Origin: Schmidtea polychroa
Taxonomy: Eukaryota
DNA length: 64,000 nucleotides
Assembly (NCBI GenBank): GCA_044892525.1
Contig: CM097885.1
Coordinates: 31,746,001 to 31,810,000, forward strand
Direction: 5' to 3'
Every line of letters begins with the position of its first letter. The stretch's first letter is position 1. The notes under the pieces are model-generated. The model saw only the letters and a list, made by a program, of their open reading frames with translations. It was not told the origin of the DNA and did no database searches. Shown here piece by piece: positions 48,430-54,425 of the stretch. The translations under genes were made by a program, and so were the position numbers.

Positions 48430-49547
48430 ATGAAGGAAACGTATCACAAAACCAACACAAAAGTGGAAAAAATGAAAACAAAAGTGAAAACAAAAGTGAA
48501 AAAAGTGAAAACAATAGAGAAAAAGTTAAAAACCATATGGACAAACCCAAAAGATCCAGATGGTTTTGGTGGCGTAGAAAAATTAACAAAACGAGTGAAT
48601 AATTCAAAGAAAGAAACTCAGAAATGGTTATCTAATCAATTAGCATATAGTTTAAATAAACCAATGTTGAAACGTTTTCCAACAAGACCATACAAAACAA
48701 TTGGAAACAATGATGTATGGCAAATGGATTTGATGGAAATGATACCTTATTCAAAAATTAACAAGGGGTACAAATATATTCTGACTTGTATAGATGTTTT
48801 TAATAGATATGCTCGTGCTGTTCCTACAAAAACTAAATCTGCAAATGAAATGGCTGATGCGATAAAAGAAATGTTTGCAGATGGTAAACCTATTAATTTA
48901 CAAACGGATTTAGGTAATTATATTTAATTAATTAATTTTTAAATAAATGATTTAGGTAAAGAATTTTATAACACCAAAGTTAAAGAGGTTATCAAAGGAA
49001 TAAACCATTACTCAGTATTTTCTCAGTTCAAAGCTGCTCACGTAGAACGATTTAATCGAACTTTAAGAGAACGCTTGAAAAAATATTTTGTATATCAAGG
49101 TAATAAAACTTGGATAAATGTTTTGCCAAAAATTATTTTCAGTTACAATCATTCACCACACAGAGGATTAAAAGGACAAACACCTGCAGATTTTACTAAA
49201 AATCAAACAAAGTTAGAGAAAATCAATAAACCGAAATACAAGGTTGGTGATCATGTAAGAATTAGTAAAATCAATTCTTCACCATTCATCAAAAACTTTG
49301 ATAATAATTGGAGTGATGAAGTATATCAAATTTTTAAAATCGATACAAAACAGAATCCTGTCATGAAAACAAACCAATCACTGGTAAATTCTATGAACAA
49401 GAACTCCAAGTAATTCCTGCTCCTACAATATTTAGAATTCAAAAGATTTTAAAAACCAAAAAAGATGGTAAATATAAACAATACTATGTTAAATGGCATG
49501 GATATGAAACTCCATCTTGGATATCCGAAAATCAATTGATTAAATAA
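48430..49547 (+). pseudogene. rve integrase with C-terminal chromodomain; intron 48914-48955; frameshift near 49363
   Basis: WQMDL; spliced QTDLG|KEFYN; VERFNRTLRE; shifted frame GKFYEQELQ...YYVKWHGYETPSWISENQL*. Confidence 0.9.
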
Positions 49548-49552
49548 ATATT

Positions 49553-50563
49553 ATGAAAGATTTTTATATTATTTTACCTTCTAATAGTTGTCCTCTTATT
49601 TTCCCCGATAATGAAGCTAGTAAATTTAATGTCGAATTTCAAAATCCTATTTACTTGGATGGTGAATGGGAAGTAGCTCTCATGGACTTTACCTTTGTGT
49701 ATAATTATTTTCCTTTTTACAACAATTCAAATGTCAAATATAGTAAAAGTGTATTACATACAAGTTATGAATACTTTTACTTTAACCAAGAAAAAAATGA
49801 ATATACAATCAGTCACGACTCTCCATTTTATTTAATATATATTGATGGAAATACATTGAACATTAATTGTAAATATTTTCCTTTTAAAGTAGAATTCGAT
49901 AGTATTAAAGAAGCGCAGAAATTGGGATTTTCAGAAAAAGAAATAACTTTTAAAAAAGCCTTGAACCAAATCACTATTCCTCCAAATAATCGAAAAATAA
50001 AGTTTGATACAATTCGATTAACTATACAATATTATTACGATGTCGAGTATACAGATACATTCGAAGAAAATATCATTACAGATCTTTCACAAATAAATGA
50101 TCAACTATCACTCTTTTATCCTCGTCCATTTAAATCTGTTGATATTCAAAAAGGAAAAATCGTTAAAATTGTAATGGATGATGATGTCAGTAAAGTTCAA
50201 TTTAGTAAATTTTTAGCCAATAGTTTAGGTTTATTAGAAGAAGCATATACTGACAAACTTATTATTGGTTTTAAAGAACCTGAAGTATTACAACGCAATC
50301 AACAATTGATGATCTATACAAATATTATCGAACCTATTATTGTTGGTGATACATTGGTCCCTCTTTTGAAATGTATTTGGGTGGAAAAACATAAAAAAGA
50401 TGATTTAGTACAAATAATTGAAAAGAATCCAATGTACTTACCTGTATCGTCTTCATATATAAACAATATAGAAATCAATATACGAGATGATAGTGGAAAA
50501 TATATATTTGGAAAAGAAGATAAAACATACTTGACATTACATTTTCGTAAAATAAATGAGTAA
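49553..50563 (+). CDS. Minor capsid (penton-like, PX) protein
   Basis: FYIILPSNS...FPDN....F...NPIYLDGEWEVAL...IYTNIIEPIIVGDTLVPLL...PMYLPV...TLHFRK. Confidence 0.88.
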   Translation: MKDFYIILPSNSCPLIFPDNEASKFNVEFQNPIYLDGEWEVALMDFTFVYNYFPFYNNSNVKYSKSVLHTSYEYFYFNQEKNEYTISHDSPFYLIYIDGNTLNINCKYFPFKVEFDSIKEAQKLGFSEKEITFKKALNQITIPPNNRKIKFDTIRLTIQYYYDVEYTDTFEENIITDLSQINDQLSLFYPRPFKSVDIQKGKIVKIVMDDDVSKVQFSKFLANSLGLLEEAYTDKLIIGFKEPEVLQRNQQLMIYTNIIEPIIVGDTLVPLLKCIWVEKHKKDDLVQIIEKNPMYLPVSSSYINNIEINIRDDSGKYIFGKEDKTYLTLHFRKINE

Positions 50564-50954
50564 TCCTGACATAATACATTTTTATAGTAGTAACCAATCG
50601 GGTGGTGATTTACCATATTTTGTTGGTAAACAATATGGAACCGGTTGGTTGAAGACAATAGGTAGATTTGCACTCCCAATTCTTAGACGAATAGGAAATT
50701 TTGGTATGAAAACAGCTAATGACGTAATAAATAACAATGCAAATATCTTGCCTGCTTTAAAATCAAATGCAATTTCTGAAATTAAAGAATCATTACCAGC
50801 TGTGATGCAACATTTACCTGAAGTAATTAATAAAGTATCCGATGTATTTAAAAATGATAAAGAACAAAAAGGCGGAATACTTAAACGCCGAAAAATTATG
50901 AAGAAACATATAAACAAAAGAATGAAAGGATATGGTACCATCTTTGAAAAATGA
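50556..50954 (+). CDS. PZ-like protein (amphipathic helix, protease-cleavage motifs)
   Basis: QSGG, QYGTGWLKTIGRFALPILRRIG, QKGG. Confidence 0.8.
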   Translation: MSNPDIIHFYSSNQSGGDLPYFVGKQYGTGWLKTIGRFALPILRRIGNFGMKTANDVINNNANILPALKSNAISEIKESLPAVMQHLPEVINKVSDVFKNDKEQKGGILKRRKIMKKHINKRMKGYGTIFEK

Positions 50955-52174
50955 TTAGTGCTAAATCAGAATTATGTCTTTTTGATAGACCTTCTCCCCA
51001 AGCAGTGATTGAACATGGAGCATTTGAAGATGTATACCCAAGAAATTCAATTACAGATGCCGGTTCTTCTTCGATTCAATTTTACATAAATGGATCGCAG
51101 ACTGAATATTTAGATTTGAATGATACTTTGTTATATATTCAATTGAAAGTTGTTAATAATTTAGGTGAGAATTTAGGCGAATCAGAAGTAATTCCAAATA
51201 ATTTCTTCTTCCAAACCCTTTTTAAAGATGTTGAATTAATTTTTAATTCAATCAAAGTTGAAGGATCAAATGATAGATTTGCCCACAAAGCATTAATTGA
51301 AACACTTATAAATTATGACGGAGATACTAAACGAACATCTTTAGGTGGAATGGGGTATACTAACAAAGATCTTACGAGAAAAACATGGATTGAAAAATCA
51401 AAATCCTTTTCTTTATGTTCCCCACTTCAATTTGATTTCTTTGATCAACCTAAATATTTACTACCAGGTGTTAGTGTTCAAATTAAATTAACAAGATCAA
51501 ATCCAACACTTAGTTTAACTTGTGCGAAAATGGAACCGAAAATTTTATTATTAGACGCAAAATTAATGGTTAGAAGAGTTCGTGTTGAACCATCGGTTTT
51601 GGCAGGACATCAAATTGGTCTGTCTACCAAAAATGCAATTTATCCTTTAAGAAGCAAAGAAGTTGTTGATTTCTCATTACCTATTGGTTCTTCCTCTTTT
51701 TATAAAGAACAAATATTTGGAGATAGACGATTACCTAATTTTATACTTGTTGCATTTCAATCTAGTAAAAGATTTAGTGGATCGTTTTCAGAATCATTTT
51801 CTTTATTTGATCACTTTAATGTCAAGTCCATAACTTTAAGTAAAGGAAGTGATTATCGCGAAAAATATAGTCAAGATTTTGAGAATGATGATTATAGTAC
51901 AAGTTATATGCAATCGATTATTAGAAATATGGGTTATCTAAATAAAAATATGAATTGTGGTATCACCATGTCTGATTTTAAGAGCAAGTATCCATTCTTT
52001 ACATTCGTATTGGCACCAGATTTTGATCTTCATCAAAGTCAGTTACCACAAAGTGGAAATTTGCTATTAGATATTAAATTCGCATCTTCACTTACTGAAG
52101 CTGTTTCTGTAATCGTATATGGAGTTTTTGAAAAAGAAATTCAAATTACATCTACTCGTACTGTTTTGGTATAA
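50951..52174 (+). CDS. Major capsid protein (PY)
   Basis: KSELCLFD.P..Q, EYLDLNDTLLYI, DFFDQPKYLLPGVSVQIKLTR, GNLLLDIKFA. Confidence 0.92.
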   Translation: MISAKSELCLFDRPSPQAVIEHGAFEDVYPRNSITDAGSSSIQFYINGSQTEYLDLNDTLLYIQLKVVNNLGENLGESEVIPNNFFFQTLFKDVELIFNSIKVEGSNDRFAHKALIETLINYDGDTKRTSLGGMGYTNKDLTRKTWIEKSKSFSLCSPLQFDFFDQPKYLLPGVSVQIKLTRSNPTLSLTCAKMEPKILLLDAKLMVRRVRVEPSVLAGHQIGLSTKNAIYPLRSKEVVDFSLPIGSSSFYKEQIFGDRRLPNFILVAFQSSKRFSGSFSESFSLFDHFNVKSITLSKGSDYREKYSQDFENDDYSTSYMQSIIRNMGYLNKNMNCGITMSDFKSKYPFFTFVLAPDFDLHQSQLPQSGNLLLDIKFASSLTEAVSVIVYGVFEKEIQITSTRTVLV

Positions 52175-53700: not shown

Positions 53701-53705
53701 ATGAT

Positions 53706-53917
53706 AATAATAATGTAGTCTACAGTGAGCACGTAGCTAATTAATAGTCTGCAGTGAGCATGCAGTAGTCTTTAATATAATAATGTAGTCTACAGTGAGC
53801 ACGTAGCTACATAATAGTCTGCAGTGAGCATGCAGTAGTCTTTAATATAATAATGTAGTCTACAGTGAGCACGTAGCTACATAATAGTCTGCAGTGAGCA
53901 TGCAGTACTCTTTAATA
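53706..53917. repeat. 70-bp tandem repeat x3, each with two short hairpin motifs
   Basis: Units start at 53711, 53781, 53851. Confidence 0.92.
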
Positions 53918-53990
53918 ATAATCTGACCCTTATTAAATACTTATTAACTTTAAAATTTTTTCAACAACATTTAAAATAACACTTAAATAT

Positions 53991-54425
53991 TTATTCAAAA
54001 ACATTTGTAATTTTCCAAATTGGTTTAATTATAACTCCATTTATCTTGACTCCTTGAATAAGTATTCGAACTTTTGATTTTTTATCTTCGTCTAATTTAC
54101 ACCCTTTTTCACAATTGATAAATGTAAATTTTTCATTAAAAATCATTTCTTTATTAATTAATTTAAGAATTTCTCCAAGATTTTTTCTATCTTCTTCCCC
54201 AATATCTCCAATTTGAATATTGAATTGACATGTTTTTAAATTAACTGGTTCCTATAACAAATTAATATTAAATAATTAAATAAAAAAAATTACCTTGAAC
54301 GAATAAGTAATAGGATATTTCAAATAGTACATATTATATTGAAGGAATTGAATAGGAGGTTTACATACCATACCTATAACTGATGTACTATTTTCTTCTA
54401 ATAGGATACTATTTATAGTAGACAT
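53991..54425 (-). CDS. Spliced 130-aa protein, putative OB-fold ssDNA-binding protein (exons 54425-54294 and 54251-53991); not in ORF track
   Basis: AAA-ATG start; 42-nt GT-AG intron containing an in-frame stop; C-terminus SKVRILIQGVKINGVIIKPIWKITNV; divergent from pPolB. Confidence 0.7.

Follow-up and report, generated by a model that had tools for sequence, protein, structure and literature searches.

Element 2, a Polinton in the genome of the flatworm Schmidtea polychroa, carries three short inserts in its genes that are almost certainly spliceosomal introns, judged from the reading frames and from collinear homologues. One of them, located in the protease gene, is found at the same base in the nearest relatives. 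This shared protease intron, which marks a Polinton clade, is the addition of this work, and no paper describing such a clade-marking intron in Polintons was found. The labeled inserts I1, I2 and I3 are very probably ordinary, near-minimal U2-type introns of a heritable Polinton/Maverick branch, which would be spliced by the host and would have been gained stepwise.

Element 2 and its inserts

Within the window, i.e. the whole analysed stretch of 64,000 nucleotides, element 2 comprises a protein-primed DNA polymerase B (pPolB), a retroviral-type integrase, an ATPase, a cysteine protease, a capsid gene and long terminal inverted repeats, as is typical for a Polinton/Maverick. The trait of intronless core genes, which has been described for Polintons but is not part of the definition, does not hold for its lineage. 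The left terminal inverted repeat (45033..46277, outer limit approximate, 45033-45040) was delimited by the inverted arms and by comparison of the ends, the arms pairing at 45385-45712/59251-59578 and 46132-46277/58774-58919. Since the right repeat (58774..60146) is cut short within the terminal G/C hairpin, the 6-bp target-site duplication is unreadable.

On the plus strand, the packaging ATPase (47209..47832; Pfam Pox_A32, PF04665, E 8e-7) has no intron and is preceded by an ATAAAC box at -34. Exon 1 of the integrase (48430..48913) comprises the first two catalytic aspartate motifs, WQMD and QTD (Pfam rve, PF00665, E 2e-8, alignment A2), and exon 2 (48956..49547) the glutamate helix and a chromodomain (Pfam rve_3 and Chromo). 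Between them lies I1 (48914..48955, 42 nt, phase 1), two codons past the second catalytic Asp. The integrase is broken in this copy, where its reading frame closes at 49413 and a different frame encodes the chromodomain part. The major capsid gene (50951..52174), from which the tree described below was calculated, also has no intron. Its product showed no match in Pfam and was identified exclusively by Atlas features, with a score of 0.98 to clusters in which 22-30% of the members have DJR-like_dom, pointing to a double jelly roll.

An ATAAAC box (52176..52181), a putative late promoter element, is located 33 nt 5' of the protease ATG. The first coding exon of the protease (52209..52213) consists of the start codon and two bases and is invariant in the clade. 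It is followed by I2 (52214..52253, 40 nt, phase 2, in codon 2) and by exon 2 (52254..52587), which encodes an adenovirus-type cysteine protease (Pfam Peptidase_C5, PF00770, E 1.5e-5) with the conserved His, Asp and Cys present (alignment A1). Gene 3 is encoded on the minus strand by exon 1 (54294..54425; 44 codons if translation starts at the first ATG, with the ATG further on, at 54332, as a possible alternative) and exon 2 (53991..54251; homologues P0066, P0067 and L012), separated by I3 (54252..54293, 42 nt, phase 0). The polymerase (54557..58767, plus strand; Pfam DNA_pol_B_2, PF03175, E 9e-32) is divided between two frames here, with 54557-55774 in one and 55723-58767 in the other.

The coordinates of the three inserts agree with those of the initial annotation, and each insert reads GTAA...TAG with 7% G+C. 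As it had proposed, removal of the inserts keeps the frame, each gene being read exon by exon in frame across the joint. It had recognised in-frame stops in both 42-nt inserts (TAA at 48925-48927 in I1 and 54278-54276 in I3), but missed that the 40-nt insert also contains one (52215-52217). Likewise overlooked were the 11-nt repeat at I1, the disrupted frames of integrase and polymerase, and a further candidate, I4 (52927..52970, plus strand, 44 nt), which is defined by sequence pattern only. I4 lies behind TATATAAA at 52873-52880 and probably belongs to the 5' untranslated leader of a repeat-rich open reading frame (52984-53271). Element 1 (about 9400-21750) does lack such introns, its open reading frames being uninterrupted and neither of its two pattern matches splitting a gene.

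In the 12.5-kb interior of element 2, the intron pattern matched five times compared to shuffle means of 2.0-2.5, and as many were obtained in 6 and 10 out of 100 shuffles. By itself, the pattern is within chance in this A+T-rich DNA, and the proof of introns therefore rests on homologues. In the alignments of protease, integrase and gene 3, the exons are collinear with uninterrupted homologues across the inserts. Among 24 introns from the window and the related loci, A was found at +3 in 22 and at +4 in 23, T at +6 in 20 and T at -3 in 21; this tally is partly circular, as several introns were found via the GTRA pattern; for the 12 protease introns, homology served to locate them. YTRAY-like words in 26 segments occurred at scattered distances or were absent, so that no fixed branch-point motif stands out. 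With 40-44 nt, the introns of the element are just below the short-intron peak of 45-85 nt given for Schmidtea mediterranea in the available part of PMC13594981. Other published flatworm intron-length modes are about 32 and 58 nt, and a neighbouring transposase fragment has two introns of 39 and 46 nt. No RNA run was among the sequencing runs listed for this DNA. Contigs of four sequencing runs on 46300-52720 gave no match to I1 or I2 among 15 joints listed of 197, which is neutral with regard to splicing.

The protease intron in related elements

The inserts are not unique to this copy. Among the closest metagenome relatives, all 12 whose 5' end is intact (50-62% protein identity) have the protease intron at one and the same base, directly behind the start codon. 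In these loci, which represent about 9 independent lineages, a GT..AG insert of 37-43 nt follows the same five coding bases, with all three frame classes occurring and with interiors only 50-67% identical to that of the window. Of a further locus, L009, just the A+T-rich 3' end is visible. A position that is kept while interior and length drift was demonstrated for I2 only. The intron is absent in 26 more distant loci (25 of 38, and L042), which show a direct in-frame Met start, and the second codon varies among the intronless relatives. In the capsid tree, a branch with 100/100 support separates the 11 rows with the intron from the 21 rows without it. P0005 and P0058 nest inside the intron branch and begin with MNSVQI and MNSIQI without an insert, which would fit either spliced RNA or exact loss of the intron, as both would give such starts. 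In all 12 elements checked, the window plus 11 loci, a retained intron leaves a reading frame of just two codons. Viral contigs queried with the protease, the capsid and the protease alignment yielded no relative.

Since the intron has persisted through many rounds of replication and about 50% protein divergence, transcription in the nucleus by the host machinery, and not in a giant-virus factory, is indicated. The earlier proposal that the lineage is transcribed in the nucleus and depends on the host spliceosome is supported.

In the intron-bearing branch, the putative late-promoter box is located about 37 nt closer to the protease start (about -33 compared to about -70). The box of the capsid gene moved little, being found at -44 to -56 in six of the seven intronless loci that have it (-76 in the other) and at -33 to -41 in 8 of 8 intron bearers. 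In 10 of 11 loci, capsid and protease genes are spaced by -1 to +4 nt, so that stop-start coupling on a bicistronic message of both genes came into question; the separate ATAAAC box makes an own promoter of the protease more likely.

It had also been expected that annotation based on open reading frames would misjudge such genes, and this is borne out by the protease calls (n=28), of which 9 begin with intron-like read-through and 9 start late or oddly. According to the available parts of the sources, two Polinton surveys disregard introns since core genes are taken as intronless. Intron-bearing Polinton branches would be under-counted or scored as decayed.

Introns of different age in the other genes

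The initial annotation had treated all three inserts as one phenomenon. This holds for their nature as introns; a single age is not supported, as they differ in age. The joints of I1 are spanned by an 11-nt direct repeat. Among 28 integrase homologues, 22 continue through the I1 site, 2 stop just past it, again as misleading calls, 2 are unclear and 2 end earlier. I1 is absent in 9 of 9 DNA loci with a homologous integrase (L039, a locus from viral contigs, is unrelated and was excluded from the counts). Two of the I1-less loci keep the protease intron on the same contig and therefore do not represent spliced RNA. I1 appears to be present in one relative of 80% identity; P0029, which stems from a public run, ends at this integrase position as well, and for P0030 and P0057 the protein ends, as the only basis, suggest a same-site intron. 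The window, P0029, P0030 and P0057 form one group (SH-aLRT 94). From this distribution, I1 is younger than the protease intron. Its limitation to a small sub-branch means that it is no lineage-wide integration switch. A gating of integration or maturation by intron retention, as suggested by the initial annotation, is hypothetical, and the integrase of this copy is broken downstream in any case.

In the relatives, one to five introns are found in the N-terminal part of the polymerase. L001 has five and L002 four at matching sites, and in both the frame is open only across all introns. For the polymerase of this copy no intron was shown; a search by eye for a hidden leader exon gave an acceptor-like TTTTTAG ending at 54572 and no fitting donor.

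For gene 3, both exons align with P0067 in one continuous, gap-free stretch across I3, and the last 18 residues of exon 1 match P0067 residues 2-19, ending at the joint. Gene 3 yielded no Pfam family, no solved relative by sequence and no Atlas match above 0.86. The model of P0067 (pLDDT 52; a second gene 3 model, at 46, was of insufficient quality for comparison) was compared with 48,161 chains, and all top scores were below the telling level: Enc34 SSB at rank 1 with Z 4.7 (rmsd 4.6, 103 aligned), followed by DUF2815 with Z 4.6 (4.4, 96) and gp2.5 with Z 4.3 (5.5, 109). As a weak lead, the product could possibly be a T7 gp2.5-like single-stranded DNA-binding protein. Neither I3 nor I4 has a second example among the loci compared.

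A replicon of 14 kb that has accumulated introns at several times makes the question of intron origin testable, as I1 still has the repeat at its joints and intronless sister alleles exist.

Proposed explanation, alternatives and known systems

According to the explanation that we consider best, the element would be transcribed by host RNA polymerase II inside the nucleus, and each intron would be excised by the spliceosome of the host, probably constitutively and by intron definition. The protease intron would have been gained once, on the stem of the branch, along with the shift of the promoter box, a pattern that is seen in the loci and may reflect a common event. The integrase intron would have followed in one of the sub-branches, at an AG|GT site, where the 11-nt repeat suggests staggered-break repair or a short duplication. 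An intron origin by tandem duplication was not demonstrated, with only I1 (p 0.06, a weak signal apart from the repeat as such) and I3 (p 0.05) near the tail of the shuffles in 24 tests. The gene 3 intron and the N-terminal polymerase introns would have arisen in single lineages. Because each intron either contains a stop or alters the reading frame, nothing but its precise excision is tolerated; the introns presumably persist for this reason and since clean loss by way of reverse transcription is not open to a replicon that is copied from DNA to DNA.

A further possibility, which we regard as rather doubtful, is that the introns are kept since splicing helps the transcripts, either in export and expression or in evading a host surveillance directed at foreign RNA without introns. 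Several independent gains within a single branch and the location of most introns near the 5' end of their genes would agree with this, as would the pattern count, with 22 matches in the 52 kb from clade loci and 0 in the 86 kb from others, although this count is confounded by base composition (28-34% versus 33-42% G+C). Introns counter HUSH silencing in human cells (PMC8770142), and PIWI represses planarian Polintons (PMC8532177), as far as the available parts of these sources report. However, within these elements introns are lacking from the genes for capsid, minor capsid and ATPase, and the intronless element 1 shares the same genome. Such a benefit is compatible with host-spliced, stepwise gained introns.

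It seems unlikely that the protease intron is a regulated switch, by which protease and capsid maturation await splicing in a certain tissue or late phase. The invariance of the intron position and the five preceding coding bases in about 9 lineages, while codon 2 varies in intronless relatives, is in line with a switch, as are the halt of translation at codon 3 upon retention (12 of 12) and the promoter-like box that moved with the intron. However, the stop needs no special cause, since any phase-2 intron starting with GTRA makes one. Furthermore, donors and acceptors are near consensus, the interiors have no common motif, P0005 and P0058 may have lost the intron, and the integrase intron is too patchy for a general gate. 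In the Drosophila P element, regulated retention of the third intron is proven and yields a repressor. The P element resembles element 2 in the dependence of transposon gene activity on host splicing and is the model for gating, which is hypothetical for the flatworm element.

Equally speculative and improbable is the view that the branch is a splicing-dependent nuclear virus, whose protease was rebuilt in one step (promoter near the start codon, first exon of a few bases) to time maturation and whose further introns were gained as host-message disguise. In adenovirus, pTP and polymerase receive their start codon from a tiny upstream exon, and the L3 protease follows the hexon and depends on splicing. 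The flatworm element shares with adenovirus, a related lineage, the order of capsid and protease and a start codon split off by an intron (window protease; L011 polymerase). While adenovirus uses long alternative splicing and shared promoters, the element has introns of about 40 nt and a protease seemingly with its own promoter box. If this view were true, the branch would be a living parallel to the origin of spliced expression in the related adenoviruses, and a small replicon in which intron gain is datable and its mechanism readable.

It is very improbable that the inserts are introner-type transposons that landed in integrated copies. Dinoflagellate Polinton-like proviruses do hold introners, and the direct repeat at I1 could be of this kind. 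As described in the available text of PMC11957031, these elements also have spliceosomal introns within the element, which are repeated transposon families mostly inserted after integration; in contrast, the introns found here are unique, minimal and A+T-rich, and one of them has been passed on at a constant position along a viral branch. Among 276 pairs of the 24 introns no near-identical family was found (best local scores 11-16), joint repeats are 3 nt or less in 23 of 24, and the protease intron tracks the element tree and was thus inherited and not freshly inserted, so that for this intron an introner origin is largely refuted. Decay or assembly artefacts of a dead copy, suggested by the frame breaks of integrase and polymerase, the cut right end and the chance-level pattern count, have a negligible probability, as same-site GT..AG inserts in 12 unrelated contigs refute them for I2, and P0029, obtained from a public run, ends at the integrase position of I1.

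Element 2 resembles animal Polintons/Mavericks in its terminal inverted repeats, pPolB, retroviral-type integrase, A32-like ATPase, adenovirus-type protease and capsid genes, but differs in the split protease and integrase and, in relatives, the split polymerase. Core genes are stated to be intronless for vertebrate Polintons (PMC8097293) and for those of Caenorhabditis, where introns occur only in captured cargo genes (10.1101/2022.07.12.499685), both according to the available sections. The accessible portions of PMC10748475, PMC8502044, PMC11296320, 10.64898/2026.07.28.741278 and 10.64898/2026.10.13.758929 make no mention of spliceosomal introns in core genes. Polinton-like viruses of cryptophytes and other protists also have introns in the genome, near the capsid gene. 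Unlike those of the flatworm element, these are, in the part of PMC12220804 available, self-splicing group I introns of 309-376 nt in a small unannotated gene, and are neither spliceosomal nor located in core enzymes.

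Inserts of element 2 and the protease intron

The three inserts that the initial annotation had placed in element 2 are present as described, in the integrase (48914-48955), the protease (52214-52253) and a minus-strand gene, here termed gene 3 (54293-54252), and in an exon-by-exon reading with X at the joint the frame is kept across each of them. In-frame stops had been noted for both 42-nt inserts; these were found, but the claim was too narrow, since the 40-nt insert of the protease contains one as well (3/3). In DNA so rich in A+T, the intron pattern by itself is within chance: element 2 comprises five matches compared to means of 2.0-2.5 in shuffled sequence, and at least five were obtained in 6 and 10 of 100 shuffles. 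The case for introns was therefore built on homologues. One of the five pattern matches (57790-57833) falls within the polymerase reading frame, which stays open there, and is probably due to chance.

A protease-alignment scan of metagenome contigs yielded 38 loci, the nearest 13 of which (L001-L012 and L024) showed 50-62% identity. All 12 with an intact 5' end comprise, at the same site as the window, ATG plus two bases, GT, 37-43 A+T-rich nucleotides and AG, while L009 begins 10 bases ahead of the AG; the insert is thus not unique to this copy. Among the 12 loci its length falls into each of the three frame classes. The interiors share 50-67% identity with that of the window, which is taken as close to the expectation from base composition alone. 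The remaining 25 loci and L042 showed an in-frame Met at the matching place without an insert. For a capsid tree, loci with 200 or more aligned residues were used (32 rows); a 100/100 branch separated the 11 intron bearers from the rest, and intronless rows surrounded their group. The simplest reading would be a single gain of the protease intron on the stem of this branch. The intron-bearing loci and the window collapse to about nine independent lineages.

Among 28 protease protein homologues, nine open with a read-through rich in F/I/L/Y, 10 start directly and nine start late or oddly. Two of the direct starters, P0005 and P0058 (members of one cluster), were nevertheless placed inside the intron branch by a quick tree; this can originate from spliced RNA or from exact loss, and the N-terminus would be identical in both cases.

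In the excerpts available, Polinton core genes are called intronless (PMC8097293; 10.1101/2022.07.12.499685), two surveys take no account of introns (PMC9356565; 10.1101/2025.04.19.649669), and group I introns in Polinton-like viruses (PMC12220804) and introners in dinoflagellate Polinton-like proviruses (PMC11957031) are reported; flatworm intron-length modes were taken from excerpts of PMC13594981 and PMC4040987. In the accessible parts of the literature searched, no Polinton core gene was described as carrying a conserved spliceosomal intron, and an annotated case is possible in Repbase, subscription papers, the founding papers of 2006-2007 or supplements.

Integrase, gene 3 and additional introns

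The integrase intron interrupts the codon two places past the second catalytic Asp, so that its retention would remove the Glu helix. While 22 of 28 integrase homologues continue through this site, two stop just past it (P0029, 97%; P0030, 80%), two are unclear and two end earlier. A homologous integrase is encoded at nine DNA loci, and the intron is absent from all of them; in two, L005 and L012, the protease intron is retained on the contig in question. The window clusters with P0029, P0030 and P0057 in a tree (SH-aLRT 94, not starred). The integrase intron appears to have been gained later than the protease intron. Its joint carries a repeat of 7+4 nt, the sole long one among 24 introns (3 nt or less in the other 23). 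Long joint repeats are a signature of intron gain through break repair; a test for full duplication at this intron was not significant.

For gene 3, the protein P0067 aligned without gaps to the final 18 residues of exon 1 and then to exon 2, and the homologue in L012 is a single open frame. Fold comparison weakly suggests a T7 gp2.5-like DNA-binding protein as the product. A fourth intron candidate (52927-52970), based on sequence pattern, lies 5' of the repeat-rich ORF 52984-53271; near the end of this ORF a strong donor, GTAAGT, was observed at 53235, for which a nearby acceptor was not identified.

The polymerase N-terminus contains five introns in L001 and four at matching sites in L002, and L011 has a polymerase intron directly behind the ATG and one intron in another gene, while none was seen at the polymerase start of L012. 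These additional introns in relatives point to repeated gain; judged from sequence, the inherited protease intron marks a Polinton branch prone to further gains. In the window, an acceptor-like TTTTTAG ends at 54572, where the polymerases of relatives hold a conserved Cys (region 54560-54600); a leader exon may exist here as a candidate only, no donor having been found. A conserved gene past the protease (L001:551-1030, L002:489-960, L011:2907-3430) is interrupted only in L011, by a 43-nt intron, and showed no Pfam match; its acidic N-terminal motif is reminiscent of DEDD exonucleases. L012 also carries a ubiquitin-conjugating (E2) gene (222-722, minus strand; Pfam UQ_con, E 2e-12) and two minor-capsid-like genes.

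The ATAAAC box and the proposed mechanism

ATAAAC precedes the protease ATG in 13/13 bearers, at -31 to -35 in 12 and at -46 in L011, compared to -70 to -77 in 15 of the 17 close relatives that lack the intron (ATAAAT at this place in the other two); among the most distant loci it occurs in 1/9, and the background expectation is 0.15 per 130 nt. The distance from the box to protease exon 2 is nearly the same, with 75-83 nt in bearers (92 in L011) and 75-82 nt in intronless relatives. The capsid gene's own box showed little displacement. Since the protease box of the window lies outside the capsid frame, coding constraint is not the sole cause. The box is a putative late promoter, in which case the first protease exon would comprise just about 10-15 nt. 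In element 2, ATAAAC also precedes the ATPase, a small gene at about 47852, the mu-like gene and the capsid gene.

Altogether, intron position, conservation, tree pattern, stops and box spacing are directly observed features. It is highly probable that the element is transcribed in the nucleus, that its introns are removed by the spliceosome, and that they were gained stepwise and persist for want of a clean loss route. To this extent the initial interpretation stands. That the elements benefit from being spliced is doubtful; the parts available of two papers describe introns counteracting HUSH silencing in human cells (PMC8770142) and planarian Polintons under PIWI control (PMC8532177). The gating through intron retention that had also been proposed is less likely still: any phase-2 GTRA donor places a stop at codon 3 of the protease, and such a stop is in itself no sign of control.

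Elements and genomic setting

The window comprises two Polinton/Maverick elements. Element 2 (about 45035-60146) has terminal inverted repeats, with ATPase, integrase, protease and pPolB recognised by Pfam and the capsid gene by Atlas features; element 1 belongs to a different, intron-free family, and a phospholipase A2-like domain is joined to its integrase (18952-20403, minus strand). A potassium channel gene of the host, of the ELK/KCNH8 type, has recognisable exons at 7910-8110, 27371-27625, 37657-37870 and 41284-41547, placing element 1 within a single very long intron and element 2 beyond the last exon recognised. For one channel exon with 26 matches, all 21 carrying an organism name were flatworms (58-67% identity), and five were unnamed. 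This points to a flatworm as host, probably a free-living one, as none of the parasitic groups is nearer.

In this copy of element 2, the integrase frame stops at 49413 and the chromodomain is read in a different one; the polymerase is split between two frames, and the right end is truncated. Directly past this end lies a transposase fragment with a Sleeping Beauty-type HTH (weak Pfam match) and introns at 60182-60227 (46 nt) and 60321-60359 (39 nt), and a 47-nt intron-like segment occurs outside both elements (63736-63690, minus strand). Element 2 also contains a TBP-like gene (46682-47158, minus strand; Pfam TBP, E 5e-15) with homologues in 14 loci.

Sequencing run X4 yielded 14,844 contigs over 6.4 kb, with identities from 99% down to below 90%; this suggests a large and varied family, contig number not being equal to copy number. 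Contigs of run X2 showed poly-A at their ends at 48504 and 49904, reflecting either true ends or internal priming. Three Polinton contigs (L040, L041 and L042) had been sorted into bacterial genome bins, probably by binning contamination.
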